A program made the translations under genes and the position numbers. DNA of 64,000 nt from an uncultured Candidatus Saccharibacteria bacterium (lineage in GTDB: Bacteria; Patescibacteriota; WWE3; UBA101185; UBA10185). A model generated the notes under the pieces. It did not search any database. It was given only the letters and a program-made list of their open reading frames with translations, and was not told where the DNA came from. Below, in pieces: positions 6,953 through 62,078 of this stretch (position 1 is the first letter of the stretch; each line of letters opens with the position of its first letter). The stretch lies in NCBI GenBank assembly GCA_964510435.1, contig CAZEBU010000001.1, forward strand, positions 144,791 to 208,790, given 5' to 3'.

Positions 6953-9125
6953 ATATAACGTCAGCAAAATATTAATAGTGTTTCTCACAGGTCTTTTTTT
7001 TGCACTGGCCGGAAGCAAAGCTTTAGCGATAACGGAAGAAATAACCATTACCTGCAACCCCGGAGACGAAGGCCCCAATAATTGCGCGGTACTGCCTTCC
7101 AACACAGCGCCCCTCTTTGACGAAAACGACTATCCTCTCTTTGATCTAAAACCGGGGGATGAAATTCACCGGGAAATCACTGTGACCAACAATCGAGAAG
7201 AAACTTGCTACTTTACCCTAACGGACGCCACTAAAACCCACGACACGGAAACACCTCCCACCTCGGGAAACTACTTTTCGGATAGATTGGAAACGGAAAT
7301 AACCGACGGTGTTGACACCACTGGTCTGATCTCTTTTGCTACTCTTTTTGGCTTAACGGATATTTACTTGGCCGAACTTGCCCCTTTTGAAACAAAAACA
7401 CTGGATTGGGACGTTTTCTTTGACAAAAACGCCGGCAACGAATACCAGAACGCCCGCTTGGTGTTTGATTTCACCTGGAATTTCAACTGTGGTGAGGAAC
7501 CTCCACAGACTGAGCTTTTCATCGAAAAAACCAATAACAAAATAGGTATAACCCAGTTGCCAGGAGCAGATGTAACTTACACCATTTTTGTAACCGCTTC
7601 CCAATTTTATCCGGTTTTCAACGTTATTGTTCTTGACCTACCGCCAGGAGGATTCACCTATACACCCGGCAGCTGGACAGCGAATTCCAGTGTGAGAGGA
7701 AACATAAAAGGCTTGGGAACTACCACGGAGCCAAGCTACACCTCACCGGGACTCTGGAACCTGGGTGATATGGAAGCTGGAGAGGTAGTTACTCTAACCT
7801 ATGTCACAAACATTAGCTCCTCTCAACAGCCCGGCTTATATAAAGACATTGCCTGGACAGAGGGTACCGCTACTTCAGACCCTACGTCAACTCGAGTCTT
7901 AGGAAATGCAGGTACAGGATTTTTTGTAGGCACTTCAGCCGCAGTTGATATAGAGGATCCCAAGGAAGTACAGGTAGAACCCGAAATAGAAATTATAAAA
8001 ATAGAAGAAGGAGAAGTTTTGGGAGCGGAAATATTGCCAGCCACCGGAGCCAATAACATCTGGGTTTTTATCATTTCCAACCTTTTTGGGATCGGTGTGA
8101 TCCTCACTATCATCGGCTTATATTTAAAGAGACACCGCAAGGGTGCGAGAACAGCCTTGCAGATCTTTGTCTTCCTTGCTGCTGCAGCACTTACCTTCTC
8201 AGCAAACGCTTTTGCCACCGATCTTCTCATTAGGCTTGCGGAGCCGGCAAGTCCCAACAACCTTAATGAGCTGGACCTAAATTTTGTCGCTATGGATGTT
8301 GAAAATAGGGCAGTCACCGTAAAGTGTTTTAAAAAGGGACCAAGCGAAGCAGCATTCTCACAGTTTGGGTCATCTACCATCACTATACCGGGTGGAGATA
8401 CAGGATATTGTGATGTAACCTCATCCGTTCTCTCCGGCATGGGAACTTACAAATTTTACGCTACAGCAGACGCAGGCGGTGATAATAGCACCAGCCAAAC
8501 GGTAACTATTGAACATGACGACGAACGCCCGGGAAAACCTCACAACTTAGACAAAGACAAAAACGGTTCCTGCAAATACGACATCAGCTTTACCACAGAC
8601 TCCGATGGAGGAGACACAGTTAGGGTTGAGGTTTATCGTTCGGATGATAAGGAATTTTACGTCAACGACTCTACAAAAATTAAGGACATCGTAGTTGGCT
8701 CAGACACAGACGTTAGCTTCACAGATGATAGACCAACCTGCGGTAAAACCTACTACTATGCTGTGGCGGCTTTTGACGCGGCGGGAAATCGTTCGAAAAT
8801 ACTCGTCGAAGAATTAGAAAAAGAAAAAATAATTATCAAGACCACTAAGGAAACAGAAATAACATCAGTTTTTGGAGAGATCACGGAGGCTATCGCCCTA
8901 GGAGAAGGTGCCATAACGACTCCAGAGGAAGAAGATACGGAAGAAGTCATCGAGGAGGAGGAGCTAAGTGTGGAAAAAGAGAAGGAAGAGAAGGTTTTAG
9001 GTCTGCAGGAAGTGTCGGAAGAAGAAGGGGCTTTCTCGGAACTACTAAAAATCTTAAAGTGGCCTGTTCTAGTTCTGCTAGTTTTGATAATCTTGCTTTA
9101 TGTTAGAAAGAAACTTAAAAGGTAG
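6945..9125 (+). CDS. Mosaic surface protein: TasA-like N-domain, an internal LPATG sorting signal with a TM segment and basic patch, then a second module with a fibronectin-III-like segment, an acidic tail and a C-terminal TM anchor
   Basis: Signal peptide. LFDLKPGDEIHREITVTNN (TasA-like). EILPATGANNIWVFIISNLFGIGVILTIIGLYLKRHRKG at about aa 360. A second hydrophobic segment follows (ALQIFVFLAAAALTFSANAFA). TCGKTYYYAVAAFDAAGNRS is Fn3-like. The C-terminus is ...WPVLVLLVLIILLYVRKKLKR. Confidence 0.55.
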   Translation: MNKYNVSKILIVFLTGLFFALAGSKALAITEEITITCNPGDEGPNNCAVLPSNTAPLFDENDYPLFDLKPGDEIHREITVTNNREETCYFTLTDATKTHDTETPPTSGNYFSDRLETEITDGVDTTGLISFATLFGLTDIYLAELAPFETKTLDWDVFFDKNAGNEYQNARLVFDFTWNFNCGEEPPQTELFIEKTNNKIGITQLPGADVTYTIFVTASQFYPVFNVIVLDLPPGGFTYTPGSWTANSSVRGNIKGLGTTTEPSYTSPGLWNLGDMEAGEVVTLTYVTNISSSQQPGLYKDIAWTEGTATSDPTSTRVLGNAGTGFFVGTSAAVDIEDPKEVQVEPEIEIIKIEEGEVLGAEILPATGANNIWVFIISNLFGIGVILTIIGLYLKRHRKGARTALQIFVFLAAAALTFSANAFATDLLIRLAEPASPNNLNELDLNFVAMDVENRAVTVKCFKKGPSEAAFSQFGSSTITIPGGDTGYCDVTSSVLSGMGTYKFYATADAGGDNSTSQTVTIEHDDERPGKPHNLDKDKNGSCKYDISFTTDSDGGDTVRVEVYRSDDKEFYVNDSTKIKDIVVGSDTDVSFTDDRPTCGKTYYYAVAAFDAAGNRSKILVEELEKEKIIIKTTKETEITSVFGEITEAIALGEGAITTPEEEDTEEVIEEEELSVEKEKEEKVLGLQEVSEEEGAFSELLKILKWPVLVLLVLIILLYVRKKLKR

Positions 9126-9762
9126 ACTCCCCGATCTTCTTATCAAAGCCGGTTCTGCGCTCATCCTGGCTGCCGGGGTTTTTTTTGTGGTAGCTTTTTA
9201 TCCCAGCATCGTTTCGGAGACAAAATATCTTTTCCTCAAGCCAAATGAAGATGCTAAGATCATCGTCGATCCAAACCCTAATTTAGATAATAAAACAAGA
9301 GAAAAGTACTACATCAAGCCGGCCGATCCCGAATTTGGACTGGTTATACCTAAGATAGGTGCTAATTCTAAGGTTGTACCCAATGTAAATGCCTACGATC
9401 CTAAAATATATCAACAAGCGTTAACCAAGGGTGTAGCTCATGCGGAAGGTACTGTTTTCCCCGGGCAAATTGGTAACATTTTTGTTTTTTCCCACTCCTC
9501 CAGCAATTTCTACGAGGCAAACAAGTATAATTCTGTTTTTTATCTTCTTAGAAAACTAAACGCTGACGACTTTTTCTATTTTACTTATCAAGGGAAAGTG
9601 TATAAGTACAAGGTAAGAGAGACGAAAATAGTTGAACCAGAAGAAGTTGAGTACTTAACACAGACAACAAGCAAAAAACAAGCCACTCTTATGACCTGCT
9701 GGCCTCCGGGAACTACTCTAAAAAGACTCTTGGTCGTTGGGGAGCTAGTGGAACAGAATTAG
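9100..9762 (+). CDS. Sortase (second copy)
   Basis: N-terminal TM. His motif VFSHSS, catalytic TLMTCWPPG, and Arg in KRLLVVGE. Overlaps the end of the previous gene by 26 nt. Confidence 0.75.
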   Translation: MLERNLKGRLPDLLIKAGSALILAAGVFFVVAFYPSIVSETKYLFLKPNEDAKIIVDPNPNLDNKTREKYYIKPADPEFGLVIPKIGANSKVVPNVNAYDPKIYQQALTKGVAHAEGTVFPGQIGNIFVFSHSSSNFYEANKYNSVFYLLRKLNADDFFYFTYQGKVYKYKVRETKIVEPEEVEYLTQTTSKKQATLMTCWPPGTTLKRLLVVGELVEQN

Positions 9763-10472: not shown

Positions 10473-10625
10473 ATGCCTAAAAGAAGTTGGCAACCAAAAA
10501 AGAAAAAACGATTAAGAAAACATGGTTTTTTAAAAAGAATGCACACTCCTGGTGGTAAAAGAATTATCAAAAGAAGAAGAGATAAAAAAAGAAAAAGGTT
10601 AGCTGCCGTTATTAGTAGTAAATAA
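10473..10625 (+). CDS. rpmH: 50S ribosomal protein L34
   Basis: A 50-aa ORF found by eye (not in the ORF track): [50 protein letters not shown]. It has the typical L34 K/R-rich composition and HGF motif, and the canonical position upstream of rnpA. Confidence 0.9.
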
Positions 10626-10632
10626 AACATCA

Positions 10633-10977
10633 ATGCTAAAAAAACAAAACCGCCTCTCCACTAAATTTGAATTTAATGTCACGAGAAAACACGGTATAAA
10701 AAAGACCTATGACTATTTTCATTTATTTTACCTAAAACCTAACAATTACGAAGGTTCGGTTAAGATCGGTATTGTCATCCCCAATAAGTTCCATAAAAAT
10801 GCCGTAACGAGAAATAGAATTAAAAGGGTATTTAGAGAATTAATTAGAGGAAATATCAAAAAGCTACCCGATAACACCTGGCTGGTATTCCATCCAAAAG
10901 TAGAAAGTATTAAAGCAAGCCATGAAAAAATTAGCACTGATATTAATAAGGCTCTATCAGAAATTTCTCTCTCCTGA
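10633..10977 (+). CDS. rnpA: Ribonuclease P protein component
   Basis: RNRIKR (RNR motif), basic composition, 114 aa, directly downstream of rpmH. Confidence 0.85.
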   Translation: MLKKQNRLSTKFEFNVTRKHGIKKTYDYFHLFYLKPNNYEGSVKIGIVIPNKFHKNAVTRNRIKRVFRELIRGNIKKLPDNTWLVFHPKVESIKASHEKISTDINKALSEISLS

Positions 10978-11137
10978 AAACTTTGGTTTTCAAGTATGTA
11001 GATTCGAACCGAGTTGTTCAAGATACACCTATAAGGCTGTTGAGAAATATGGTTTATTAAAAGGAGGACTGATGGGACTATACAGAGTTGTAAGATGCAA
11101 CCCCTTTAACAAAGGTGGATCAGACCCCTTGCTTTAA
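10922..11137 (+). CDS. yidD: Membrane protein insertion efficiency factor YidD
   Basis: CRFEPSCSRY (Cys-x-F-x-P-S-C-S-x-Y hallmark), 71 aa. Overlaps the rnpA 3' end, as is common. Confidence 0.85.
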   Translation: MKKLALILIRLYQKFLSPENFGFQVCRFEPSCSRYTYKAVEKYGLLKGGLMGLYRVVRCNPFNKGGSDPLL

Positions 11138-11173
11138 CCAACACACTCTGGCAAAATAACACCTGTTGTCATT

Positions 11174-11947
11174 ATGCTATTAGAACTATACCAAACAATA
11201 TTAGTCAACCCCATATTCAATACCCTAGCCTTGGTATTTCTGTTAACAAATAGTTTGGGTTTTTCCATTATTGGCCTCACCATTGTAGTTAAGACCATAT
11301 CCATTCCGGCTATGCTGCCTTCACTAAGATCGATAAAAAAGCAAAGAAATTTACAACCTCAATTAGACAAGCTCAAAAAAAAATATAAGTACGATAAAAA
11401 GAAACAAGCCGAGCTGCAGATGCAGCTTTTCAAGGAACACGGCATTAATCCTGCCTCCGGTTGTTACAGCATGATCATTACCATACTGATCTTTACTGCT
11501 CTGTATTCCGTGATCAGACAAATAACTCAAGTGGCCGACATTTCCGAAATTAACGCACACCTATACTTTGATTTCCTCAAGTTCACCTCACTAGAGCAGC
11601 TCTCCACAAAGTTTTTCTATCTGGATCTGGCCACACCCGACCCCTACTTTATTATGGCTATACTGGCCGGTGTAACACAATTCATATTGGCAAAAATGAC
11701 CATGCCCTACGTGGAACAAGGTGTTAAAGCCGCTAAAAAAACTCCTGACAAGAAAGATGATTTTGCGTATAATATGCAGAAGCAGTCCATGTACATCATG
11801 CCTGGTATGATGGCTCTGTTGGGATTGAGTCTGCCCTCCGGTGTGATCATGTACATAATCACATCAACCATCTTTTCAGTTGTGCAAAATTATTTTATAA
11901 ATGGATGGGGAGGATTACAGCCCTTAATTAATAAGATAAAAAAGTAA
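11174..11947 (+). CDS. yidC: Membrane protein insertase YidC (short, Gram-positive/Oxa1-like form)
   Basis: Multi-TM with conserved YidC core segments (GLTIVVKTISIP, KEHGINPASGC, MYIMP). Canonical rnpA-yidD-yidC context. Confidence 0.8.
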   Translation: MLLELYQTILVNPIFNTLALVFLLTNSLGFSIIGLTIVVKTISIPAMLPSLRSIKKQRNLQPQLDKLKKKYKYDKKKQAELQMQLFKEHGINPASGCYSMIITILIFTALYSVIRQITQVADISEINAHLYFDFLKFTSLEQLSTKFFYLDLATPDPYFIMAILAGVTQFILAKMTMPYVEQGVKAAKKTPDKKDDFAYNMQKQSMYIMPGMMALLGLSLPSGVIMYIITSTIFSVVQNYFINGWGGLQPLINKIKK

Positions 11948-11948
11948 G

Positions 11949-12392
11949 ATGTCCAAAGAAGCAATAGATAAACATTTGAAAACACTCTTGGGCTATATTG
12001 ACATTGCGCCCGAAGTAACCATTGAGGAAGATGGGGAAGCCTTCAGGATCGATATCCATGGGGACGACCTGAATTTCCTGATCGGCTACAGAGGTGAGTC
12101 TCTGGATGCTTTGCAGTATATTCTCAGCCACGCCGTTTACAAGGACACCAGCAATTGGATACCTCTCACTCTGGATATCAATGGCTATAGAAAACAAAAA
12201 TTAGAAAAGCTGGAGGAAATGGTCATGGCGATCGTCGATAGAGTAAGATTCCATCAAAAAGAGATCAAACTGCCGCCGCTTTCTCCTTTCGAAAGAAGAC
12301 ATATTCACTTGTTTATTGAGGAGTACGTTGATGTAAATAGCGAAAGCAGAGGAGAAGGAAGACAACGAAGATTGTTTCTCATACCTAAATAA
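11949..12392 (+). CDS. jag: Jag/KhpB-like RNA-binding protein (KH + R3H)
   Basis: LIGYRGESLDALQYIL (KH-like GxxG region) and C-terminal R3H-like FERRHIHL. Conserved position after yidC. Confidence 0.75.
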   Translation: MSKEAIDKHLKTLLGYIDIAPEVTIEEDGEAFRIDIHGDDLNFLIGYRGESLDALQYILSHAVYKDTSNWIPLTLDINGYRKQKLEKLEEMVMAIVDRVRFHQKEIKLPPLSPFERRHIHLFIEEYVDVNSESRGEGRQRRLFLIPK

Positions 12393-13507
12393 TGAAGTTT
12401 ACATGCCTGCAAGAAAACCTAACCGACGCATTAACAAAAGTGTATCGCGCCGTACCTACAAAAAGTGAGCTGCCTATTCTCTCCAATATCTTGATCTCTG
12501 CTGAAGACAACCGGCTAAAGATCTCGGCCACTAATTTGTCAACCACTATTGTCACTCACGTAGGCGCCTCTATCGAAGAGGAAGGTGCTATAACCATCCC
12601 GGCTAAAATGCTCAGAGACTACATCGCTAACTTAAGTTCATCTTCCCTAGAAGCTTTTTTAAAAGAAGATATCCTACATGTCAATTCAGAGGCCACCAAA
12701 TCAAGATTTAACGGTGTATCAGCAGAAGATTATCCTGATCTTCCCGAAGAAAACAGCGAGCTAAAAACATTGGAAATTAATGCACAGAAATTTTATGAGG
12801 CCATATCTTCTGTGTCTTTTTGCGCTTCCATTGATGATAGTAGACCGATCTTCACAGGAGTGTATTTTGACTGTGACGGCAAACAGATCACTATTGCCGC
12901 TTCCGACGGGTTTAGATTGTCAGAAGCAAAAATCACTCCGGAAAATAAACCGGGTAAGTTTAGGGTTATTATCCCGGCAAAAACTTTAACCGACTTGGCG
13001 AGAGTTTTTTCGGATCGGGAAGAAAGTATTAAACTCACCTTGGATACAAGAGACAACTTAGCAATTTTTAAACAAGGAGACACCTTAATAGCCACCAGGA
13101 TACTTGACGGTGAATACCCGGATTATACAAAAATCATTCCGGAAGAGACCTCAACGATAGTAGAATTATCCACCAACGAGTTTTTAGAAGCCGTAAAGCT
13201 AACCGATATATTTGCCAAAGAAGCAGATAGCGCTTTGGTCATGAAAATTGACCCCAAAGGTTTTGTTGAGTTGGTAGCTACCGCCCAAGAATCCGGAGAG
13301 CATAAACACAAAATAAAAACGGGTGTAGAAGCAAAAGAAAAACTGGAAATAGGTTTTAACTCAAAATTTTTACTTGATTTCCTAAACAATGTTAAGTCGG
13401 AAAGGATATCCATAAGCACTAACGGAAATTCGGCTCCTTGCATTTTTAAGGCCGTAGATAAGGAAAACTACTTACATATCATTATGCCTATGCAGATCAA
13501 TGGCTAA
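12392..13507 (+). CDS. dnaN: DNA polymerase III beta sliding clamp
   Basis: 371 aa with three-domain clamp architecture. N-terminus MKFTCLQENLTDAL...LSNILISAEDNRLKISATNL is typical of DnaN. Confidence 0.9.
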   Translation: MKFTCLQENLTDALTKVYRAVPTKSELPILSNILISAEDNRLKISATNLSTTIVTHVGASIEEEGAITIPAKMLRDYIANLSSSSLEAFLKEDILHVNSEATKSRFNGVSAEDYPDLPEENSELKTLEINAQKFYEAISSVSFCASIDDSRPIFTGVYFDCDGKQITIAASDGFRLSEAKITPENKPGKFRVIIPAKTLTDLARVFSDREESIKLTLDTRDNLAIFKQGDTLIATRILDGEYPDYTKIIPEETSTIVELSTNEFLEAVKLTDIFAKEADSALVMKIDPKGFVELVATAQESGEHKHKIKTGVEAKEKLEIGFNSKFLLDFLNNVKSERISISTNGNSAPCIFKAVDKENYLHIIMPMQING

Positions 13508-13508
13508 T

Positions 13509-16181
13509 TCAGCTGATATCTCCTGAGCTTTTTTCGTCACCACTAATAGTGAACGTGCCTCCCTCTACACTTGGTTTTTCAGATCTGGGAGGAAGCGGCA
13601 TGGTAGGAACGTTATCATGCTTATTCACTACCTGGGAACCTTGATCTCCCTGCTCCTCTTTTTGAGGAGGAGATGGAGGAGGAGAAGGAGGAGGAGGAAC
13701 ATCCTCTATAATATTATTAGTAGGTTCATGCTTATCTTTGCTCCGTCCGAATAAACTTCCTATGCTTGCTCCGATCTTTTTCACGGCACTCCCTGCCATT
13801 TTAGGAGCATCTTTTGCGTCGCCTTGATTGATAGCACCCGGTTTTTTGATCTCCGTGGTTGCCTCCTCGCTCTGCTTTTTTTGATCGTCAAGTACAGCCT
13901 GCATACCACCACTTGCTTCTTCTTTACCTTTATCCTTTTCTTCTACACCGTCTCCTAAGACTTGAACTTTTACATCCGGTTCGTCCGCCGGCTTAGACTC
14001 AAGCACCTTTTCACCAACTGGCCCTTTCTTTTCTTCCTCTTCCTGCGGGGGAGGGGGCGAAGGTGGTGCTGGCGGTGCAGGCGGCGCCACAGGCTCCGGA
14101 GGAGGAGGTGGAGGCGTCGGTGGTGCCGCGGCGGGCTCCGGCGGCGAAGATACCTCCGGTGACGGCTGTTGTGGGGGAAGTGTTACTGGCGAGCCATCTT
14201 TCTTGTCATCCTTCCATCCGGGAATGGTTACCCCGGAATCCGACTGTGGTTGCGGTACCGGTTCTTTAATTGGAACCTCAGGTTTAGGCTTGTCCGAATC
14301 AAAACTGGTGATAGGTTTGTAAACAGGTCTTTTTTCTGGCGGCTTTATTAATCCTTCTTCCCTAAGCCTCAGCAATTCCTCAGGATCGGTGGTAATCAGT
14401 TTATGCTCTGACTGAGAAGCTTTGATTTTCATGGCAACGTGGTTTGTACCGGCAAAAAAGAGTCCTTCACCAATATCGGCGGCCAGTAATAACCTTCTTT
14501 CTCCTTCTGAGAGGTAAAATATTTCTGATACACGATCAATGGCGGCGGGGTGTTGTTTTAAAAGTATCTGAATCGAGGAATTTGTCACAATAGCCTTTCC
14601 ATAGTCAGAACTTAAAAAGTCGTCAACATCCTGAGAGATGGTAGTCAATCCTAAATAATACTTGCGCGCTCTCTTGGCTATCCCGTAAATAAATCTGGCA
14701 CTATCTTCGTTTTGCATCAAAACCCAAGCCTCCTCTACGATGAGGATCCTTTTCTTTAGATCGCGGCGGATCTTCGTCCAAATGTAATCAAGAATAATGT
14801 AGAAAGCTACCGGTCTTAATACCTCATCTTCAATATTCTTGGTGGAAAAGACGGTCATCTTATTGTCGATATCAACTGTCGACTGAGAATCAAAAATACC
14901 TGCCATAGATCCTCGAATATATTTTTCCAGCCTGTCCGACATACCCTTTGCTTCACTTTCCTGAGCGCCTAACAGAACCTTGTACAGATCCTCCATTATG
15001 GGGGGTTCCCTTTGCATCTGCGTCTCAGGATCAGTGGTAATACCTTTAATTCTGTAGGTCTCTATCAAAGCTCTGTCCAAAATGGCCTCTTCGGTAGGAT
15101 TTAGCTCTCCTAGCATTAACTTAAGCAGAGTATGTAGGGACAACAACTTTTGCCCAAGCTCGTTTTCACCTTCAACAACTACGCCGGACAAGTCAAAGGG
15201 GTTTATCTTATGATCCGAGCTGGGTGAAAAGTCAATATAATTGCCACCTACTGCTTCACACAAAAGCCGGTATTCCTCCTCGGGGTCAATGATCATCACT
15301 TCAGCTCCGAAGATCATTAAACGCAGAGCCTCTAATTTTACATAATAAGATTTACCTGCTCCGGATTTAGCAAAAATAACGGAATTAGCATTTTCCATTG
15401 AAAACCTATCAAAGATGACCAATGAGCCGTTATGCATATTTATGCCGTACATCACTCCTTCATCAGAGGTTAGATCAGAAGAAGTAAAGGGAAAGGTAGT
15501 CGCCAAACTTGTCGTATCCATATTTCTGGTAATGAGTAACTTATCCGAGGCCATAGGCAAGGTTGATTGAAATGCTTCTTCCATTTGCAGGGTGGCAGGT
15601 TTAGAAATTAATAGCAGTGAGCCTAAGGTAGATTCCAATCTACTAGTGACCGTTTCCAGTTCTTCGAGTGAGTCTGTCGTAATGGTAATATAAAAAGAAA
15701 ATTGGAAATACTTCTCTACACCTTTAACTAACTGCTCTTGTAGGGCTTGTGCGTCTTCCAAAGCGGCGCGTACAACAGGGTCCGTCACCCTCCCCTTTTC
15801 TCTATCAGATAGTTCGGTGGCCTCCAACTCGGTGATCTTCCTTCGCAAATCATCCAAGATCATTTTTGCTTTCACGGGATAGTAGAACATGGATAGATCC
15901 AAGGAGTGGTCAAAATTAATGATGGGAGAAAGCCAGTTAGCACCTACGAACCTGGGATATCCCGAGATAAATATTGTTCGATAATAATTATTACCGATCT
16001 TTAAATGATTAAAATCCACCTCTATGGCAGAGGGGGCAATAATATCTCTAACATTAAGCATACCCTCCGCGAGGATACTAGCTGCCGTTTTGCCCGTTTC
16101 TTTGCCCGTTTCTTGAGGCTGTGCAGAAGTAGAAGGAGATTCCTGCTTTTTCTTTTTTCCAAACATTTTAAATAAGTTCAT
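13509..16181 (-). CDS. VirB4/TrbE/TraC-family type IV secretion ATPase with a long C-terminal proline-rich disordered extension
   Basis: Walker A FAKSGAGKSYY. Walker B ILIVEEAWVLM. VirB4 signature RKYYLGLTTISQ (R-K...TQ). N-terminal VirB4-type region DIIAPSAIEVDFNHLKIGNNYYRTIFISGYPRFVGANWL. The C-terminal ~250 aa are P/E/K-rich (PPTPPPPPPEPVAPPAPPAPPSPPPP). Confidence 0.8.
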   Translation of the reverse strand: MNLFKMFGKKKKQESPSTSAQPQETGKETGKTAASILAEGMLNVRDIIAPSAIEVDFNHLKIGNNYYRTIFISGYPRFVGANWLSPIINFDHSLDLSMFYYPVKAKMILDDLRRKITELEATELSDREKGRVTDPVVRAALEDAQALQEQLVKGVEKYFQFSFYITITTDSLEELETVTSRLESTLGSLLLISKPATLQMEEAFQSTLPMASDKLLITRNMDTTSLATTFPFTSSDLTSDEGVMYGINMHNGSLVIFDRFSMENANSVIFAKSGAGKSYYVKLEALRLMIFGAEVMIIDPEEEYRLLCEAVGGNYIDFSPSSDHKINPFDLSGVVVEGENELGQKLLSLHTLLKLMLGELNPTEEAILDRALIETYRIKGITTDPETQMQREPPIMEDLYKVLLGAQESEAKGMSDRLEKYIRGSMAGIFDSQSTVDIDNKMTVFSTKNIEDEVLRPVAFYIILDYIWTKIRRDLKKRILIVEEAWVLMQNEDSARFIYGIAKRARKYYLGLTTISQDVDDFLSSDYGKAIVTNSSIQILLKQHPAAIDRVSEIFYLSEGERRLLLAADIGEGLFFAGTNHVAMKIKASQSEHKLITTDPEELLRLREEGLIKPPEKRPVYKPITSFDSDKPKPEVPIKEPVPQPQSDSGVTIPGWKDDKKDGSPVTLPPQQPSPEVSSPPEPAAAPPTPPPPPPEPVAPPAPPAPPSPPPPQEEEEKKGPVGEKVLESKPADEPDVKVQVLGDGVEEKDKGKEEASGGMQAVLDDQKKQSEEATTEIKKPGAINQGDAKDAPKMAGSAVKKIGASIGSLFGRSKDKHEPTNNIIEDVPPPPSPPPSPPQKEEQGDQGSQVVNKHDNVPTMPLPPRSEKPSVEGGTFTISGDEKSSGDIS

Positions 16182-16182
16182 A

Positions 16183-16884
16183 TTATTCTTCCACTATAGC
16201 CGGGTTGACCACAGCCGTTTTATAATCTTCTATGTTTGTACGAATTCTCTGTCCATGCACTGAGCTGGGATTATAAATATCAAAATATAACTCAACTAAT
16301 TCCTGGGTGGTCATCTGCCTGGCTCGGACACCTATACGGTTGAATTCCTTTATCATGTGATCGAGTTTGGGGTAGAGTTTAATTTCAGCCTCTTTTAAAG
16401 CTTTGTCAACATTAACTGCGACTCTCTTGTGATGTTTACCAAAGAGTTTAATAAAAAAATCAAAAGGACCGGATCCCGGTTCTCGTTCTGACGTTGCCCC
16501 AGAAGGTACAACAACATAAAAGTTTTTGTCCAATACTTCGTTGTTCTTAATGGTATCCTGCACAAACTTCCTGTAGGACTCAGCCTGCATTTTCAACAAC
16601 GGGTCTTCGATCCTCTGTTCCACCCTGTGTACCTTCTCAATATACTTTGTTATATCCAGTCTCTTGGATCTTATGACCACCTGAACAGGGAAGGTTATAG
16701 AGTTTAACAACATAGAAAAAGCCGCAATAGTGGCATCTTGTTCAATTTCGGATAAAAGATCAAAATTTACCGCGGTGGTTTGCAAAACTCCACATACTGT
16801 ACCGCTTTTTAGGATAACGAGATCGTTTTTAATTTCTTGAACGTCTAAATGTTCTTGTGTACTGGCAGTTATATTTGTAGCCAT
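16183..16884 (-). CDS. Hypothetical soluble protein co-transcribed with the VirB4-like ATPase
   Basis: 233 aa, no TM. Sits 1 nt upstream of the VirB4-like gene and 3 nt downstream of the membrane protein gene, so operon context only. Confidence 0.4.
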   Translation of the reverse strand: MATNITASTQEHLDVQEIKNDLVILKSGTVCGVLQTTAVNFDLLSEIEQDATIAAFSMLLNSITFPVQVVIRSKRLDITKYIEKVHRVEQRIEDPLLKMQAESYRKFVQDTIKNNEVLDKNFYVVVPSGATSEREPGSGPFDFFIKLFGKHHKRVAVNVDKALKEAEIKLYPKLDHMIKEFNRIGVRARQMTTQELVELYFDIYNPSSVHGQRIRTNIEDYKTAVVNPAIVEE

Positions 16885-16887
16885 GAC

Positions 16888-18468
16888 TTAAACCAACCTT
16901 CCAATAATTTCTATTGGGGGCAGGACTTCCCCCTTAACCTCTACAGTGATTATATCAAAGGTTAAACCTTCTACGCTTGAGCCAACCTCTAGAGTGTACA
17001 TACCTTTCACTAAAGAGGTGCTAATAGCAAACTGCCCGATGGTGTTGGTTTTTAGCGCCCTTACGGATTCGCCTTTGTGGTTTTTAATGAGCAAAACAAC
17101 TCCGGTGATGGCTTCTCCATCTTGGTTCTTCACCACCCCGGAAACTATATTAGGCTCTTCGGTAATAGGTTGCATTTTTGCGTAGGTGGGTTTTTTAGGT
17201 TGTGTGTCTTCGGGAAGCGGTTCTTCTTTTTCCTTAAGACGATTCTGCAACTCGTGGACCTGTTTTTGCAAAGTTGTATAGTCGGTGTTAGCTCGTTTCT
17301 GCTCTTCCTCAAGTTTTCTAATTAATTCAATTTTCTTTTGTTTCTCCTCATCCGAAGCCTGCGATTCATCAAGTTCCCTCTTGAGTTTTTCGATCTCGTT
17401 GGTCATCTTCTCGTTTTCTTCTTTTACCTTCCTAACTACATCTTGTGCTTCGGAGATGTCTTTCTTCTCATCCGGAACCGACAGCGGAACAACTCCAAAT
17501 TCATTATCTCCCCTTATCTGGTCCAGCAGTTTTCTCAGCTGGTCAGTTTTCTCATCAATATCCTTTTGAATATCCATTTCTTCGCTCGTTTGTAAAACTT
17601 TCTCGCCTCTTACAGGCAAAATAAGCTGTCCTTCAGAGGGAAGCATACTGGTAAACTTTCGGCCAATATGCATATCCGGGGTAATCGGAGATACAGTGAA
17701 TGTGTCCGGAAACGGCATGGCAGGTAGTGGTTTGGGTTTTGGCTTTCTCCTCTTTTTCTTTTCTTTAGGTTTTGCCGGCACTTCCAAGGTGGGCTTTGCC
17801 AGAGGAGGTATCTCCTCCTGAGGTTTTTCAACTTCCTTAACCGGCTCCTCAGGTTTTGTCTCTTCCATTGGTGCTTCCTCCTCCGCTTTTTCTTTTTCGG
17901 GCAACTCATACTCAACGTATTCTTCGGCATATTCCTCTTCCTCTGCGACTTCAACAGCGGTGGCAACAGGAGCAAAGGCTTGTCTCACTTTAAGAATGTA
18001 CTCCTTTTCGGGTATATCAAGCTTATCCTCAACTTGCGTCTGCTGTTGCAGTTCCAAATACTCTTCTAATTTCCTTCTGCTAGAAGTAGGTGCTAAAGTG
18101 ATAAGTTCTTGCTTGACCATAGCAATATTCTGATAAGTGAAGGCGGCCGGTAAAACGGGATCTTTTTTCCAAACTCTTTGCGTAGGTGAGTAGACACTTC
18201 TGAAAAAGTTGACGAACCATTCGTCCATACCTCTTTCCTGTATAGGGACAAATGCCAAGGCCAACCCTGCTAAAACAAAGGATATAGATACAGGATACCT
18301 AAAAACACCCACCAGGGAGATGTAAGCAAGATAAGAAATGATCCCTGCGACCAACAAATAAGTAAACTGGCGCATGGTTAGGTCACCGATCAACTTAAAT
18401 TCAACATCCATTATATTTTGCGGGACTGCGTGTTGTTTATGAGTTTTTTGTGCTTCTCTTATGGGCAT
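16888..18468 (-). CDS. T4SS-associated membrane protein: N-terminal two-TM module (VirB3-like by position), coiled-coil/E-K-P-rich linker, C-terminal carboxypeptidase-regulatory-like beta domain
   Basis: TM hairpin (FTYLLVAGIISYLAYISLVGVF / VSISFVLAGLALAFVPI). Long E/K-rich coiled coil and a KKKRRKPKPKP patch. C-terminal VVKNQDGEAITGVVLLIKNHKGESVRALKTNTIGQFAI is CarbopepD_reg-like. Lies upstream of the VirB4-like gene. Confidence 0.45.
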   Translation of the reverse strand: MPIREAQKTHKQHAVPQNIMDVEFKLIGDLTMRQFTYLLVAGIISYLAYISLVGVFRYPVSISFVLAGLALAFVPIQERGMDEWFVNFFRSVYSPTQRVWKKDPVLPAAFTYQNIAMVKQELITLAPTSSRRKLEEYLELQQQTQVEDKLDIPEKEYILKVRQAFAPVATAVEVAEEEEYAEEYVEYELPEKEKAEEEAPMEETKPEEPVKEVEKPQEEIPPLAKPTLEVPAKPKEKKKRRKPKPKPLPAMPFPDTFTVSPITPDMHIGRKFTSMLPSEGQLILPVRGEKVLQTSEEMDIQKDIDEKTDQLRKLLDQIRGDNEFGVVPLSVPDEKKDISEAQDVVRKVKEENEKMTNEIEKLKRELDESQASDEEKQKKIELIRKLEEEQKRANTDYTTLQKQVHELQNRLKEKEEPLPEDTQPKKPTYAKMQPITEEPNIVSGVVKNQDGEAITGVVLLIKNHKGESVRALKTNTIGQFAISTSLVKGMYTLEVGSSVEGLTFDIITVEVKGEVLPPIEIIGRLV

Positions 18469-18539: not shown

Positions 18540-21500
18540 TTATTCTAACTCAACAAATAATATTAGATCCTGGTTTAGCTTGCCACCAATAGTTATAATT
18601 CCATCTTGGTAATTAAAATTATTGCTGCCTTTAACCATCTGCATGCCAAAAGGCAAACTAAAACTGTAGTCAAAATCGTCATTGTTCGTACCAGCCTGTT
18701 TCTGCCAGGCCAAAGAGTAATTACCCTGATCTTTAGTTACGGACAGCTCAACCGGTAAATCATAGTAAAATATAAGTTTAACATTGCTAGAAGGCTTTAG
18801 CACAAAACTGGTCTCAAAAGAAATGTACGGCTCAACCTCGGAAATAATGATCTCGTCAAAAATATCATCCTCAATGGTCAAGTCATAAATTACCTTTCCC
18901 CCCGTCAGTTTGGCACCCTTTTGTGCCAACACACGCACATAGTTAGTGTAAGGACCCCCCGGCCAGGATTCGTCAACACCCGTATGAACATAATCTAATG
19001 TCAGCTCCGCTCTCAAAAGGCCGTCTCTGGTCTTGCTGGTTATCTTATATTCCATAGCATTTTCTACATAATAATTTGCCTTAGTTCCCCCAAGATTTGC
19101 ATTAACCACTTGCAGATAATCCCCGTCGGTACGAACAAGACTGCCTGCCCATTCCCTTTCCAGCAGGGAGGCGTTGAGGGGACTGGCAAAAAGATAGATT
19201 TGTAAATGTCTTTGGTTGAGAGCATTCCCCAATACTCCCACAAACTGAGGAGTTTCCCCGCTGTCAAGTGTAAAAAGGGTTTCGATCAATTTACTGCCCA
19301 AAACCGTTAAAAACTGCCTTTTTTGATCTGAACCTTCTTGATAATCATAAGAAGCATGAAACTGAGTTCTTTCGTATAAGTTTTGAGCGGTAACTTCCTC
19401 GTTGTAAGAGGTTAAAAACAAAGGACCTGTAACTCCCAGAAGATTTTGTACTAAATGCAGATCTGCAGCTACCACACCGTCTATATTCTCACCGCTTAGC
19501 ATAAAAAAGAGATTTTTTATAGCATCCGCACTACGTGTAAAGTCGGGATCCCAGTTGGCATTTCTTATATACAACCTATCCTCAACTAACATGTCTCCTA
19601 TAGGCTTGGGCGGTGTAACTCTGATATTTCTCACATCTATTTGGCCATCAGGATTATATATGTCATCGATGGTTATCTCTTCAATTTTTCCCTGGTTTAA
19701 ATACAAAAACGCGTAAGACCCTATAAAACCTCCTGTGGGTCTTATTTCGTTGTTGTTTTGGAAGAGGATCAAGTATTTCTTGGGGCCATCAAACCCTAAA
19801 AGATCAGGGAGGTCAGAAGACACCGCCCAAGCTAAATCCAATCCTTCTTGTGTCGCAGATAGCACTTCCTCATAAATTCCAATATCTTTTCTTGCTATTT
19901 CCGGTAGCCTGTCCTTATTTACTTCGTTAAAATCAGCCAAAGCTCTCTGCAAATTATTCTTAGCATTTGAGATGTGCAGTTTTGTTTCGTCAAGAGCGGC
20001 TGGATCAAAAGAATTTTCTGACTCGGGTTTTAAAGAATCCCAGATAATTTTAAGGGGGGCCGCTGAACTAGAAACATCGTAGGCCACATTTGAGAAAGAC
20101 GCCACTGAACTTAAAAGCTTGGAGGTAGCTTCGTGGTTTTCCTCCTTACCAAATACTTTGAAAAGCCAATCCAGGCTTGAAAAATACCTGTTTGCTTTTA
20201 AAAAACCCTCCTGGGCAAGCTCTGCATTATCCGAAGCTTGCTGCAGGTCAAAGCGCGCAATAAGTTCCGGTATGCCAACCAAAGTATCCATGGCTTTTTT
20301 CGAGGAAGAATAGGTATTAAACAGGGGCATAAAAATAAATACCAAAAGGAAGGAAAGGAAAATAACAAAAAACAGGGATATTTTGCTGGCCAAACTTATG
20401 CGGGGAAAGCTGATCCCTAAGTTTAGTTTAAATCTATTTTTGATCTTGATCTTCGGTAAGTCTTTTGTATCTGCAATTTGCCGGCTATCATAATTTTGTT
20501 GAACTTCAGTAGCCTCAGCAATTTTTTCTACAGGCAACTCTTTTACCTGGACATCATATAAGGTGGTAAGTTGTTCCTGAGTTTTATCTCTTTTTTTCTC
20601 AATTAGTTTTGCCTGCTTAAAACTCTGCTCATTTACTTCATATCCCAACCAGGTAAGGGTCTTTATCACACCTTGCTTAAAAGTGGTTCTCGGCTGCCAT
20701 TTTAGATCTCCTAAGTTAGATGTATCCGGTACAAATGACGCGGGGGAAAGCAGGGGCTCTTCCCCTTCGAACTTTACCTCTATTTGCCTGTCGGCTAGGC
20801 TTTTCACTAAAAAAGCCGTCTCTAAAGCCGATGTAGGTTCTTTATGAACAAGCGTGTAAATTTTCCCTTCTGTATTATCGTTTAACAAGCCTTTGATCAT
20901 TCCTGCCACGGCATCGTCGATATAAAGGTAGTACTCCTTAACGGAACCGTCCCCTTTAACCTTAAGTCCTTTATTTTGCGTGAGGTCGCTGAGAAACTTC
21001 CCTAGATACCCACTGGAAAACAAGTTCATCCTCGGACCGTACACCTCCGGGAGTCTTACAATTCTCACATTGGTGCTATTTCGTTTATAGTATTCCCAAA
21101 CCAAGGCCTCTGCGTATCTTTTTGCTTCGGCTAGGCTATATCTTCGTTCCTGCATCTTTGATTTGCCAAAGTAGGCATCCAAATTTAACTGGGAGATCAT
21201 GCCCCCGTAAACGTCAATGGTTGAGACCAATAAGAATTTTGCCTCTGAACTTTTTGCTAAATCCAATAAGTTTTTTGTCCCTACGGCATTTGTTAACAGA
21301 GAATCAAGATCCAGATCATCCTTGCTATAAAGGTATTCCTCTAAGCCTGCCAGGTGAAATATATAGTCAACACTTTCTATTTCAGGCGGTAGCCCCTGAT
21401 TAATATCCACATCATATAGAGCAAATTTGGGGTTTTTCAGTAAATGGTTTATATGAACATCCTTGCCTGTACTGAAATTGTCAAGAATAATCACCCGCGC

Positions 21501-21611
21501 CTCTTTCTGAAGCAACACTTCTGCCAAATGAGAGCCAATAAAACCGGCGCCTCCTGCTATTAAAATAGTTGGAGCCAAAGGTGATTTTTTTATAGTTTTT
21601 TTACTTTGCAT
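18540..21611 (-). CDS. Fusion protein: N-terminal NAD(P)-binding SDR-extended epimerase/dehydratase-like domain, single TM, and a ~650-aa extracytoplasmic domain of unknown function
   Basis: Rossmann motif ILIAGGAGFIGSHLAEVLL and an epimerase-like ~330 aa. TM ISLFFVIFLSFLLVFIFMPLF at about aa 400. A large C-terminal domain with no recognised motif. Confidence 0.6.
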   Translation of the reverse strand: MQSKKTIKKSPLAPTILIAGGAGFIGSHLAEVLLQKEARVIILDNFSTGKDVHINHLLKNPKFALYDVDINQGLPPEIESVDYIFHLAGLEEYLYSKDDLDLDSLLTNAVGTKNLLDLAKSSEAKFLLVSTIDVYGGMISQLNLDAYFGKSKMQERRYSLAEAKRYAEALVWEYYKRNSTNVRIVRLPEVYGPRMNLFSSGYLGKFLSDLTQNKGLKVKGDGSVKEYYLYIDDAVAGMIKGLLNDNTEGKIYTLVHKEPTSALETAFLVKSLADRQIEVKFEGEEPLLSPASFVPDTSNLGDLKWQPRTTFKQGVIKTLTWLGYEVNEQSFKQAKLIEKKRDKTQEQLTTLYDVQVKELPVEKIAEATEVQQNYDSRQIADTKDLPKIKIKNRFKLNLGISFPRISLASKISLFFVIFLSFLLVFIFMPLFNTYSSSKKAMDTLVGIPELIARFDLQQASDNAELAQEGFLKANRYFSSLDWLFKVFGKEENHEATSKLLSSVASFSNVAYDVSSSAAPLKIIWDSLKPESENSFDPAALDETKLHISNAKNNLQRALADFNEVNKDRLPEIARKDIGIYEEVLSATQEGLDLAWAVSSDLPDLLGFDGPKKYLILFQNNNEIRPTGGFIGSYAFLYLNQGKIEEITIDDIYNPDGQIDVRNIRVTPPKPIGDMLVEDRLYIRNANWDPDFTRSADAIKNLFFMLSGENIDGVVAADLHLVQNLLGVTGPLFLTSYNEEVTAQNLYERTQFHASYDYQEGSDQKRQFLTVLGSKLIETLFTLDSGETPQFVGVLGNALNQRHLQIYLFASPLNASLLEREWAGSLVRTDGDYLQVVNANLGGTKANYYVENAMEYKITSKTRDGLLRAELTLDYVHTGVDESWPGGPYTNYVRVLAQKGAKLTGGKVIYDLTIEDDIFDEIIISEVEPYISFETSFVLKPSSNVKLIFYYDLPVELSVTKDQGNYSLAWQKQAGTNNDDFDYSFSLPFGMQMVKGSNNFNYQDGIITIGGKLNQDLILFVELE

Positions 21612-22348: not shown

Positions 22349-22749
22349 AGTATTCAATCTACACTGACGGGGGTTCCAGAGGAAATCCCGGCCCCGGAGC
22401 TATTGGTGTAGTAGTCATGAACCAAAAGAATAAGGTTATTTATGAACTCTCAAAATATCTTGGTAGGTGCACCAACAATGAAGCCGAATATCTAGCTGTT
22501 CTCCACGGCTTGAAGATCGCCTCAAGTAGAAAGTACACTGATGTACAAATACATATAGATAGTCTACTGGTTGCAAGTCAACTAAGTGGCAAGTATAAAG
22601 TTAAAAATGAACGCCTTAAAAAAATATTTAGAAAGATCAAATATCTGGAAAAAGATCTTCACACAGTCGAGTACATTCATATAAAAAGAGACAAAAATAA
22701 AAACGCAGATAATCTAGTTAACGAGGCTTTGGATGAAAATGGCTTCTAA
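22345..22749 (+). CDS. rnhA: Ribonuclease HI (RNase H type 1)
   Basis: YTDGGSRGNPGPGAIG (catalytic Asp), TNNEAEYLAVLHGL (catalytic Glu), IDSLLVASQ (Asp), KNADNLVNEA (Asp). 134 aa. Confidence 0.8.
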   Translation: MKYSIYTDGGSRGNPGPGAIGVVVMNQKNKVIYELSKYLGRCTNNEAEYLAVLHGLKIASSRKYTDVQIHIDSLLVASQLSGKYKVKNERLKKIFRKIKYLEKDLHTVEYIHIKRDKNKNADNLVNEALDENGF

Positions 22750-23623
22750 AAATCCCAGACCAAGGGCAAAGGAAAAAGCCTGTGATAGAGCTGTAAAAAG
22801 AACGCTTTGCTACAGTGCGATATTTAATTATCCAAGAAGCTGTTTCCAACTTTATACATTTCTCATTACGAAAAAGGACTTCGAAGAAAAATTTTTTCTT
22901 AAATCCTTAAGAAGACTGGTTAAGAAAAAGCATATAAAAGCGAGGGGTGGAAAATATTATCTCCCCTACATCAGACCTTTAAGCTGGAACCTAAGAAACA
23001 AGTATTCTCAGGAACTTCTTAAAGAATCCTCCTTAGGAGTAAACATGCTAAAAACTATTCCTTGGATCAAAATGTTGTCCGTTACAGGAGCCGTGGCTGC
23101 AAATAATGCCGAGAAGGACGATGATGTGGACATTTTTATCATCACGCAAAAAAATCGTATGTGGTTAAGTAGGTTTTTTGTGTATCTGATTTTAAAAATT
23201 ATAAATAAATATTCTCAGGGAGAAAAAGAAAAAAGAAAGTTCTGCTGTAACTTATTTGTGGACGAAACAAACATCAAGTGGGATAAAAACAAGCAAAATA
23301 TTTATGTAGCCCACGAAATACTGAGCATGCACCCTCTTATAAACAGAGACGAAATGTACTTTAGATTTGTAGATGCCAATTCCTGGACTCTAAAATTTTT
23401 TAAAAACTACCATGTGGAAATTCCCACTAAATTCAGTAAAAAAGACGTTTCTCAAAGCAAATTTATTGACGCAGTGGAAAACTTTTTCAGAAAAGTACAG
23501 CTAGCTTACATGAAAAATAAAAAAACTACTGAGATAACTAAAAAAGATTTTATTCACTTCAATAAATTCGATCACTCAAAAGAAATTTTAAATACCTACA
23601 AAGAAAATCTGGGGAAAATTTGA
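22733..23623 (+). CDS. Hypothetical protein with a possible nucleotidyltransferase-fold core
   Basis: SVTGAVAANNAEKDDDVDIFII fits the [GS]x9-13 Dh[DE]h NTase pattern only loosely. Overlaps the rnhA end by 17 nt. Confidence 0.3.
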   Translation: MKMASKNPRPRAKEKACDRAVKRTLCYSAIFNYPRSCFQLYTFLITKKDFEEKFFLKSLRRLVKKKHIKARGGKYYLPYIRPLSWNLRNKYSQELLKESSLGVNMLKTIPWIKMLSVTGAVAANNAEKDDDVDIFIITQKNRMWLSRFFVYLILKIINKYSQGEKEKRKFCCNLFVDETNIKWDKNKQNIYVAHEILSMHPLINRDEMYFRFVDANSWTLKFFKNYHVEIPTKFSKKDVSQSKFIDAVENFFRKVQLAYMKNKKTTEITKKDFIHFNKFDHSKEILNTYKENLGKI

Positions 23624-24497: not shown

Positions 24498-24785
24498 CTA
24501 CCTGAAGAGTGCACCAAGCATGCCTGCGACAAAGGTTCCAGCGACGGATGCGATGATGTACAACCGCACCAGAACTTGCAGCAGAACATAGAGGTAAGCC
24601 ACCAGGAGCACCAGCAGGACTACTCCCCACAAGACACTGCCATGAACAAATGCGGCAATGGCTCCAGCCGGCAAACCGAACAGAACGAGATACGCGGTAA
24701 AGCTAGGCAAAGGCCAAACCTTCGTTAAACCAAAGACAAATTCTCTTGCAGTAATACTGCGCACCGTACTCCTCCTATTTCTCAT
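24498..24785 (-). CDS. Small multi-TM membrane protein (GC-elevated singleton)
   Basis: 95 aa, three hydrophobic helices, local GC about 50% versus about 38% flanks. Nested alternative ORFs exist on the same strand. Confidence 0.3.
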   Translation of the reverse strand: MRNRRSTVRSITAREFVFGLTKVWPLPSFTAYLVLFGLPAGAIAAFVHGSVLWGVVLLVLLVAYLYVLLQVLVRLYIIASVAGTFVAGMLGALFR

Positions 24786-29460: not shown

Positions 29461-29479
29461 TCGGTACCCTTTAAAAGAA

Positions 29480-29554
29480 TGGAGGCGCAGAGGGGAATCG
29501 AACCCCCGCATCGAGGTTTTGCAGACCCCAGCGTTTCCACTTCGCCACTGCGCC
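29480..29554 (-). tRNA. tRNA-Cys (anticodon GCA)
   Basis: Reverse complement reads GGCGCAGTGGCGAAGTGGAAACGCTGGGGTCTGCAAAACCTCGATGCGGGGGTTCGATTCCCCTCTGCGCCTCCA. Acceptor stem GGCGCAG/CTGCGCC, anticodon loop CTGCAAA (T33, GCA, A37), T-arm GGGGG-TTCGATT-CCCCC, encoded CCA end. Confidence 0.75.
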
Positions 29555-60633: not shown

Positions 60634-60637
60634 TCTT

Positions 60638-61911: not shown

Positions 61912-62078
61912 ATTCCTTCTTCAAAAACTCCAGGTCTAATCCTTCGCTTACCAACACTGATTTCTCCACAACCGCCGGGTTTATAAACTTATCTTCAGAA
62001 AACTCCCAAAATTTTGACCCTACCCATAATATACCAATTATAAATAAAATTAACAACAAAGTTAGTAAGTTTTTCATA

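Follow-up and report, generated by a model that had tools for sequence, protein, structure and literature searches.

A gene triad beside dnaN in a WWE3 bacterium as the probable anchor and divided motor ATPase of a Patescibacteria-type secretion system

We investigated three adjacent genes next to dnaN in a 64-kb stretch of DNA from an uncultured bacterium of the class WWE3 (64,000 nucleotides of contig CAZEBU010000001.1; hereafter the window, in which position 1 is the first letter and to which all coordinates refer). The triad very probably encodes the membrane anchor and the two-piece motor ATPase of a chromosomal, non-conjugative type IV secretion system (T4SS) of the Patescibacteria type, vertically inherited and derived from the conjugation machinery of monoderms (MPF-FATA). 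The system is already known from the literature, since two earlier papers (PMC12102498; PMC10633639) describe it, including its proximity to dnaN. The original prediction of a T4SS-like module, made from the DNA letters, is therefore correct and not new. That prediction had assigned the module to the kind reported for Saccharibacteria; the kind of system matches the literature, but the organism belongs to WWE3, where the related loci are 75 to 89% identical in the ATPase core. The locus adds no new system and flags the split VirB4, the VirB3 extension and motif-bearing disordered VirB4 appendages. We did not find earlier descriptions of the motifs and variability of the VirB4 tail, of the coiled-coil and CnaB-like extension of VirB3, of the Walker B variant EEAW, or of a locus with no VirB6 or pilin recognised nearby.

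The membrane anchor and the divided VirB4 ATPase

The three open reading frames (ORFs) lie on the minus strand exactly as predicted for a three-gene operon, with spacers of 3 nt between the 526-aa (amino acid) and 233-aa genes and 1 nt between the 233-aa and 890-aa genes. The abutment of dnaN on the module was confirmed as well: dnaN (TIGR00663, 296.4 bits vs a cut-off of 137.65) is convergent with the ATPase gene, and the two stop codons are 1 nt apart.

16888 to 18468, minus strand: VirB3/PrgI-like membrane anchor with a long C-terminal extension, 526 aa; Pfam PrgI match above cut-off
18250 to 18375, minus strand: hairpin of two transmembrane (TM) segments in the PrgI domain, aa 32 to 73; AlphaFold helices 32 to 51 and 57 to 73, pLDDT 85 to 96
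16183 to 16884, minus strand: TrsD/TraC-like protein, first half of the VirB4 N-terminal domain, 233 aa; profiles, fusion test and predicted fold
13509 to 16181, minus strand: VirB4-family ATPase, 890 aa, with the second half of the N-terminal domain, a RecA-like ATPase domain and a tail; NCBIfam CD1110
14391 to 15482, minus strand: ATPase (C-terminal) domain, aa 234 to 597; match to 4AG5
15348 to 15365, minus strand: Walker A, SGAGKS, aa 273 to 278; canonical
14724 to 14747, minus strand: Walker B, ILIVEEAW, aa 479 to 486; Glu-Glu, where 4AG5 has VDEAW
12392 to 13507, plus strand: dnaN, context outside the machine; TIGR00663

The VirB4 assignment of the 890-aa protein withstood the profile search. 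It matched the curated family NF045971 ("VirB4-like (conjugal transfer) ATPase, CD1110 family", conju_CD1110) with 363.6 bits against a cut-off of 325, and CD1110 is its best-scoring curated profile family; TIGR00929 (VirB4_CagE) gave 122.7 bits, under the equivalog-style cut-off of 643.1. Residues 234 to 597 align with the solved C-terminal domain of Thermoanaerobacter VirB4 (4AG5, E = 1e-51), and this RecA-like domain carries both Walker motifs. All signature motifs had been predicted to be present, which was correct for the canonical Walker A; Walker B is a variant, EEAW rather than DEAW. Of the 69 complete orthologs, 31 have DEAW and 38, mostly from WWE3, have EEAW; the exchange of Asp for Glu is conserved within a motor that is otherwise under tight constraint.

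The 233-aa protein is of the TrsD/TraC-like type and corresponds to the front half of the N-terminal domain of VirB4, here detached from the rest. It matched the NCBIfam profile VirB4_plasma over profile positions 104 to 279 (E = 3e-10) and, below threshold, TrsD (E = 9e-7, 28.9 bits vs a cut-off of 200), and its gene is located immediately upstream of virB4. The ATPase alone aligns to full-length VirB4 profiles only from profile position ~180 to 277 on. Fusing the two proteins in silico resulted in collinear alignments over positions 104 to 893 of VirB4_plasma (300 bits, compared to 257.5 for the ATPase alone) and 18 to 724 of TIGR00929 (134 bits, compared to 122.7), so that the VirB4 N-terminal domain is found divided between two ORFs. 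In a Foldseek comparison of the AlphaFold model of the 233-aa protein (pLDDT 66, pTM 0.60) with the PDB, the best 13 matches were all R388 TrwK/VirB4 (E = 3e-5 to 3e-3), with the next at about 0.7; a sequence search against PDB chains gave no match. A natural fusion also exists (P0241, 787 aa, core 64% identical), in which residues 6 to 203 match the 233-aa protein with 43% identity. Further, Pfam PF26593 ("TraC-like") is assigned to P0121, a protein 100% identical to the 233-aa protein, and to the gene called beside the identical PrgI protein. At all related loci of sufficient length, the 233-aa gene adjoins virB4. The original prediction had listed a soluble partner protein of 233 aa; the ORF exists, but an independent partner or adaptor is ruled out by the fusion alignment, the TrwK/VirB4 fold and P0241.

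Residues 15 to 99 of the 526-aa protein are a Pfam PrgI domain (PF12666, 42.7 bits vs a gathering cut-off of 27), and the N-terminal VirB3-like two-TM hairpin proposed for it was recovered by AlphaFold at residues 32 to 73. PrgI is the VirB3 equivalent of monoderm T4SSs. Homologs bear the NCBI name "PrgI family protein", and the gene is the first of the triad at every locus long enough to show it. A PrgI family protein would be expected to measure ~100 to 120 aa; of the 526 aa found here, ~430 aa are an extension made up of linker, coiled coil and CnaB-like domain. A PDB sequence search with the whole protein returned a coiled-coil chance match as its sole result.

Separate TrsD proteins are known from monoderm MPF-FATA systems: the TrsC-TrsD-TrsE type of pGO1/pSK41, systems with CD1110-family VirB4, and PrgI-PrgJ of pCF10. 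A plasmid of Pontibacillus sp. (NZ_CP062975) has the same gene order as the window, with a small two-TM protein of 116 aa, a TrsD-like protein of 274 aa and a CD1110-type VirB4 of 621 aa. Its ATPase core is 39% and its TrsD-like protein 26% identical to the window proteins (E = 1e-24 for the latter), and its VirB3-like protein and VirB4 are without the extension and the tail of the window proteins. These plasmid genes are neighbours of a pilin-like gene and of one for a peptidoglycan hydrolase. As this shared arrangement shows, the split of VirB4 predates the WWE3 lineage. Unlike the window locus, MPF-FATA loci belong to mobile elements, and besides the pilin-like and hydrolase genes they also encode large membrane proteins.

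The TrwM(VirB3)-TrwK(VirB4) complex of R388 (PDB 7O41, 7O42, 8RTB, 8RTD) offers a structural template for a VirB3 that anchors a VirB4 hexamer, and the N-terminal region of TrwK is similar to the predicted 233-aa fold (E = 3e-5 to 3e-3, probability 0.97 to 1.0). R388 differs in being a diderm system with a single-polypeptide VirB4 (sequence identity 11 to 14%) and in having VirB6, VirB8 and VirB10 partners, which were not found at the window locus. Following the R388 structures and VirB4 biochemistry, the VirB3 hairpin would tether the VirB4 hexamer to the membrane via the VirB4 N-terminal domain, here presumably assembled from the TrsD/TraC-like and the 890-aa polypeptides, and ATP hydrolysis would drive the assembly of, and the transport through, an envelope-spanning apparatus. 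Work on Saccharimonadia suggests that such a machine serves an episymbiotic lifestyle and not conjugation, and that it may form a pilus or conduit or carry macromolecules between episymbiont and host.

Conservation, chromosomal setting and earlier reports

Scanning one genome per species resulted in 80 related loci, all of them from Patescibacteria (WWE3, Shapirobacteria and Dojkabacteria; 55 to 89% identity). The ATPase core is 75 to 89% identical to that of the window in WWE3, ~60% in Shapirobacteria and 57 to 62% in Dojkabacteria/WS6, while the best plasmid or phage relatives of VirB4 are at most 40% identical; we used this separation as a proxy for membership of the Patescibacteria VirB4 clade. 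Wherever a locus is long enough to show it, the triad is complete and its order unchanged. About 30 WWE3 genomes have it in the same housekeeping neighbourhood, and Shapirobacteria and Dojkabacteria have also kept the three genes together. Most WWE3 loci read alaS-groEL-NTase-like-rnhA-wzz-epimerase/DUF4012, then the triad, then dnaN-jag-yidC-rnpA, with the adjacency of dnaN and the ATPase gene kept.

For the 19 loci with full coverage, we compared the median identity to the window across genes. It amounted to 78% for the ATPase core, 69% for both the 233-aa protein and GroEL, 58% for the PrgI domain and 50% for DnaN, YidC and RnpA; in all 19 loci the ATPase core was more conserved than GroEL. 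These comparisons indicate that the triad is inherited vertically and under strong constraint. In an uncultivated class, a motor module alone has been kept at a fixed, origin-proximal position and evolves slower than GroEL.

All non-nested ORFs of 100 aa or more between positions 36 and 63256 were scanned with Pfam or NCBIfam, which yielded housekeeping and envelope genes and no relaxase, type IV coupling protein (T4CP), integrase, VirB6 or VirB2. The proposed lack of a nearby relaxase, coupling protein and integrase was thereby upheld. Because synteny is fixed, conservation is high and mobility genes are missing from the 64 kb, we regard the triad as part of the core chromosomal gene set and not as a mobile element, which agrees with the chromosomal, non-conjugative module originally proposed.

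An integrative conjugative element, of which the triad would be a relic or a working part, is already largely refuted as an explanation, and we consider it barely credible. The best curated profile is indeed a conjugal-transfer ATPase family (CD1110), some homologs bear the NCBI name "PrgI family mobile element protein", and distant homologs are found on thousands of plasmids. However, neither linked mobility genes in the 64 kb nor a patchy distribution was observed: the triad occupies the same chromosomal site among housekeeping genes in ~30 species-level genomes, and identity follows taxonomy and exceeds that of GroEL and DnaN. No adjacent tRNA-flanked boundary was found beside the missing relaxase, T4CP and integrase, and the single tRNA of the window is located 11 kb away between housekeeping genes. 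The guanine-plus-cytosine fraction of the locus (0.42 to 0.45) falls in the upper part of the window range (0.36 to 0.47) with no sharp boundary.

The fullest account of the system is a survey of 3,035 Patescibacteria genomes by Quiñonero-Coronel et al. 2025 (PMC12102498), who described a monophyletic Patescibacteria VirB4 clade nested in MPF-FATA. In that survey TrsD, a remote homolog of the VirB4 N-terminus, is the commonest neighbour, VirB3/PrgI homologs adjoin virB4, relaxases are very few, T4CP homologs are mostly far from virB4, and VirB6 is scarce in Microgenomatia; virB4 is located near dnaN, dnaA, rnpA, rpmH and ksgA. The part of its supplement that we consulted holds no WWE3 entries, and a text search of the paper found no mention of WWE3, a VirB3 extension, a motif-bearing VirB4 tail or an EEAW Walker B. 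Using transposon sequencing, Wang et al. 2023 (PMC10633639) found the T4SS cluster of Southlakia epibionticum to be essential for epibiotic growth; this T4SS (SEML1_0006-0019 in Ca. Southlakia epibionticum ML1) is without coupling protein and relaxase. The Patescibacteria T4SS is the first T4SS found essential for its carrier bacterium, and its cargo would be central to how ultrasmall episymbionts live off their hosts.

The window locus shares with these systems a VirB4 with adjacent TrsD-like protein and VirB3/PrgI homolog, the chromosomal position near dnaN, rnpA and rpmH (the latter read at 10474 to 10625), the lack of a relaxase or coupling protein at the locus and vertical inheritance within classes. 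It differs in that the triad stands alone, whereas the Saccharimonadia cluster adds VirB6, a VirB2-like pilin array and peptidoglycan hydrolases.

Appendages of VirB3 and VirB4

Both the anchor and the ATPase carry long regions beyond their family domains.

17971 to 18171, minus strand: conserved helical region after the VirB3 hairpin, aa 100 to 166; many invariant columns, WWE3-specific
17593 to 17970, minus strand: disordered acidic/Lys/Pro-rich linker of VirB3, aa 167 to 292; pLDDT below 50 throughout
17224 to 17586, minus strand: coiled-coil or long-helix region of VirB3, aa 295 to 415; AlphaFold helices 295 to 322, 334 to 368 and 373 to 415
16891 to 17151, minus strand: C-terminal CnaB/transthyretin-like beta-sandwich of VirB3, aa 440 to 526; pLDDT 88 to 94
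13512 to 14381, minus strand: disordered C-terminal tail of VirB4, aa 601 to 890, 20% Pro; no profile or structure match apart from low complexity

The helical region behind the VirB3 hairpin has invariant columns that include W100, E121, P127, T128, S130, R131, R132 and D151, and a profile hidden Markov model (HMM) of it detected 35 of 35 WWE3 orthologs and none from Shapirobacteria or Dojkabacteria. The linker closes with the conserved motif PITPDxHxGRKF...LPxRGE (aa 261 to 289), of which G269, R270, F272, L284, P285, R287 and G288 are invariant. The predicted coiled coil was recovered as the helical region 295 to 415, which also gave weak SMC and coiled-coil profile matches. A CarbopepD_reg-like domain had been proposed for the C-terminus. 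A beta-sandwich is present there, but the CarboxypepD_reg profile match (residues 442 to 497) reached 28.8 bits, below the cut-off of 32.3, and Foldseek identified a CnaB/transthyretin-like fold, with 8bdw CnaB2 (E = 3e-5) as well as the BcpA pilin, UafA and the TTL domain of carboxypeptidase D among the matches. An HMM of this domain detected 34 of 35 orthologs from WWE3, 7 of 7 from Shapirobacteria and 7 of 22 from the Dojkabacteria group. No further hydrophobic segment was found after residue 110 in any of 64 PrgI-like orthologs, so the extension should share the membrane side of the N-terminus; if VirB3 topology is kept, this side would be the cytoplasm.

The tail of VirB4 contains the motifs VTIPG (651 to 655), a Pro run (687 to 712), KKIGASIGSLFGR (801 to 813), NNIIEDV (822 to 828) and GGTFTISGD (874 to 882). 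Pfam, NCBIfam and PDB searches returned nothing for it except low complexity; the only PDB matches were Pro-rich alignments to MAPKAP kinase 2, which we dismissed. Tails are present in all 69 complete orthologs, one of 10 aa and the others of 76 to 324 aa, and their Pro content ranges from 0 to ~25%; high values (20 to 27%) occur only in the window and in a small number of further WWE3 loci, most of which are those nearest to it. Motifs of the window tail recur in loci L001 to L004 and other WWE3 loci. Tails from WWE3 show G-[TS]-[FI]-x-[LI] near the C-terminus and PSxE[DE]IL[RK]SVE, those of Shapirobacteria a terminal KMDYDKLFGDGIV and those of Dojkabacteria REEIQKGRxHITPQG. Other Patescibacteria VirB4 representatives carry a low-complexity N-terminal extension of 220 to 290 aa instead (Pro/Ala/Gln-rich in P0250 and P0252); the disordered appendage has shifted between the VirB4 termini in evolution. 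Because orthologs carry varied tails and other VirB4s N-terminal extensions, the Pro-rich tail is one form of a lineage-variable disordered appendage with short conserved motifs. The original prediction of an unusual Pro-rich tail of ~250 aa was right about the Pro run and about the departure from classical VirB4, but the tail measures ~290 aa and, as a common variable appendage in the clade, is not unique.

Speculatively, the coiled-coil/CnaB-like extension of VirB3 and the VirB4 tail could act as cytoplasmic scaffolds that recruit partners or substrates, and might thereby replace the missing locally encoded coupling protein. A bolder version, which we judge distinctly improbable, holds that the T4SS of WWE3, Shapirobacteria and Dojkabacteria has been pared to a self-contained VirB3/split-VirB4 engine in which these appendages stand in for the coupling protein and possibly for channel partners. 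One step of such a scheme could be that the terminal beta-strand-like motif of the tail docks on the CnaB-like domain and gates or recruits cargo. If true, the engine would represent an architecture new among machines driven by VirB4, built from proteins that are among the most constrained in these genomes. Across lineages, no clean pattern linked the kind of tail motif to whether VirB3 has the CnaB-like domain.

Partners, possible roles and gene neighbourhood

The WWE3 locus is a motor only. VirB6, VirB8, VirB1 and VirB2-like pilins were not recognised in the 64-kb window, nor within 10 kb of the triad at the sister loci examined, save for an NlpC/P60 membrane protein after virB4 in Shapirobacteria; homologs of the latter and of the small proteins downstream of it were not found in the window. 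Three small two-TM ORFs (24498 to 24785, 43353 to 43577 and 41780 to 42142) were considered as VirB2-like pilins and had no family match, and the polytopic membrane proteins near sister triads, considered as VirB6, are Wzy-like, ABC, MurJ and FtsX proteins.

Several points weigh against our assignment of the triad to a Patescibacteria-type T4SS. With no channel or pilin partner recognised, a complete secretion apparatus is not demonstrated for WWE3. Glu replaces the canonical Asp in Walker B, the model confidence of the 233-aa protein is only moderate (pLDDT 66), and CnaB-type folds are typically extracellular, which is awkward for a VirB3 extension that we place in the cytoplasm. We know of no Patescibacteria T4SS with an established function, substrate or structure. 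Essentiality was shown in another class, Saccharimonadia (PMC10633639). Since VirB6 is scarce in Microgenomatia (PMC12102498), accessory genes such as VirB6, a pilin array or a VirB1-like hydrolase near virB4 are not strictly defining for the Patescibacteria T4SS.

The same gap could mean that, in WWE3 and its relatives, the VirB3/split-VirB4 triad is a stand-alone membrane motor that has left the type IV secretion channel and now serves some other task in the envelope, such as the assembly of polysaccharide or of sortase-dependent surface fibres; we hold this exaptation to be highly unlikely. It would fit the lack of VirB6, VirB8 and VirB2 matches by Pfam or NCBIfam in the 64 kb and among the polytopic neighbours of sister loci, as well as the scarcity of VirB6 in Microgenomatia (PMC12102498). 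Sortase genes recur near the triad and lie directly downstream of it in one WWE3 subgroup, sortase/DUF11 clusters occur up to ~10 kb away in the window and in two Dojkabacteria loci, and the lineage-specific VirB3 extension has a CnaB-like fold typical of sortase-assembled pilins. On the other hand, divergent VirB6, VirB8 and pilins are difficult to pick up with sequence profiles and their genes may lie in other parts of the genome, virB4 of Shapirobacteria is directly followed by a gene for a VirB1-like NlpC/P60 hydrolase, and sortase proximity may just reflect a conserved gene order in the origin region. There is also no precedent for VirB4 outside a T4SS or a Ced-type system.

A different question, which concerns substrate and direction and not the family, is whether the triad powers the uptake of DNA or other nucleic acids in the manner of archaeal Ced or the ComB system of Helicobacter, so that a nucleotide-auxotrophic cell could feed on the nucleic acids of its host. 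DNA uptake was, beside host interaction, one of the two roles originally proposed for the module. McLean et al. 2020 and two reviews (PMC11665869; PMC12857230) discuss effector export or host-molecule uptake as possible roles of the T4SS and state its function as unknown; uptake is raised in these reviews because comEC is dispensable and the T4SS essential in Southlakia. A 2026 preprint connects a VirB4 clade of Patescibacteria with the transfer of macromolecules in a parasite that feeds on RNA. The lack of a relaxase or T4CP nearby is in line with uptake, and archaeal CedB is likewise a VirB4/HerA-type ATPase of a non-conjugative chromosomal system. Similarity to CedB was detected, although weakly (NF041017, E = 5e-12, or 1e-13 for the in-silico fusion), and also to CedD. 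However, the CedB equivalog scored 45 to 50 bits against a cut-off of 700, the conjugative-type model CD1110 fits far better, the window showed no recognisable partner of the CedA or ComB type, and there is no experimental evidence of import in any Patescibacteria. We therefore consider nucleic-acid uptake unlikely and retain the non-conjugative Patescibacteria-type T4SS as our reading of the triad.

The surroundings of the triad yielded further observations. Between 36 and 9762 (plus strand), 4 kb from the triad, lies a cluster with two sortases (680 to 1219 and 9100 to 9762), two proteins with camelysin/TasA-like N-termini (1531 to 2826 and 2874 to 4247), a lamin-tail-domain protein and a DUF11 protein; it is probably a locus for a sortase-assembled surface fibre or adhesin. 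Sortase/DUF11 homologs are found up to ~10 kb from the triad in loci L003, L066 and L070. The DUF11 surface protein (6945 to 9125, plus strand, 726 aa) has an internal sortase-type signal, LPATG-TM-RHRKG, at about aa 370 to 410. Another ~320 aa follow, closing with a second TM segment and then a basic tail; this layout suggests either an ORF that joins two surface-protein modules or a protein that sortase cuts midway.

A pair of holA (DNA polymerase III delta) and a sortase gene is found at 59932 to 61390 (plus strand) in the window, at 12023 to 13428 in L009 and at 12427 to 13914 in L025. In a WWE3 subgroup (L006, L009, L013, L018, L025, L028, L042) the pair replaces dnaN directly downstream of virB4, a placement that suggests a rearrangement breakpoint at the virB4 3' end. 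Shapirobacteria loci have a gene of ~450 aa after dnaN on the same strand.

On the other side of the triad, a 1023-aa fusion of an NAD-dependent sugar epimerase/dehydratase, a TM segment and DUF4012 (18540 to 21611, minus strand) is located directly upstream in most WWE3 loci. The 296-aa protein encoded at 22733 to 23623 (plus strand) has no family match in the window copy; its Dojkabacteria homologs show a weak nucleotidyltransferase match (NTP_transf_2). Its gene is a neighbour conserved across classes, adjoining the VirB3 gene on its upstream side in divergent orientation in Dojkabacteria (L052 to L077) and lying four genes off in WWE3. Consensus scans of the 13-to-22-kb region gave 21 promoter-like sites (shuffled sequence, 15.2 ± 4.1) and 18 terminator-like sites (10.5 ± 3.4), neither convincingly above expectation, and no usable operon boundary was obtained from them. 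A tRNA-Cys (29480 to 29554, minus strand) overlaps the 5' end of the listed alaS ORF (27601 to 29511, minus strand), and the true start of alaS is probably further downstream than listed.

Finally, the genes at 10474 to 13507 (plus strand) follow the order rpmH-rnpA-yidC-jag-dnaN with no dnaA beside dnaN, and no window ORF of at least 100 aa matched the DnaA family. DnaA-box-like 9-mers (TTATCCACA, at most 1 mismatch) occur 29 times in the window compared to 16.8 expected, a count reached in none of 100 shuffles, and 11 of them lie within the last 4 kb (59958 to 63890). This end of the window may be close to oriC.

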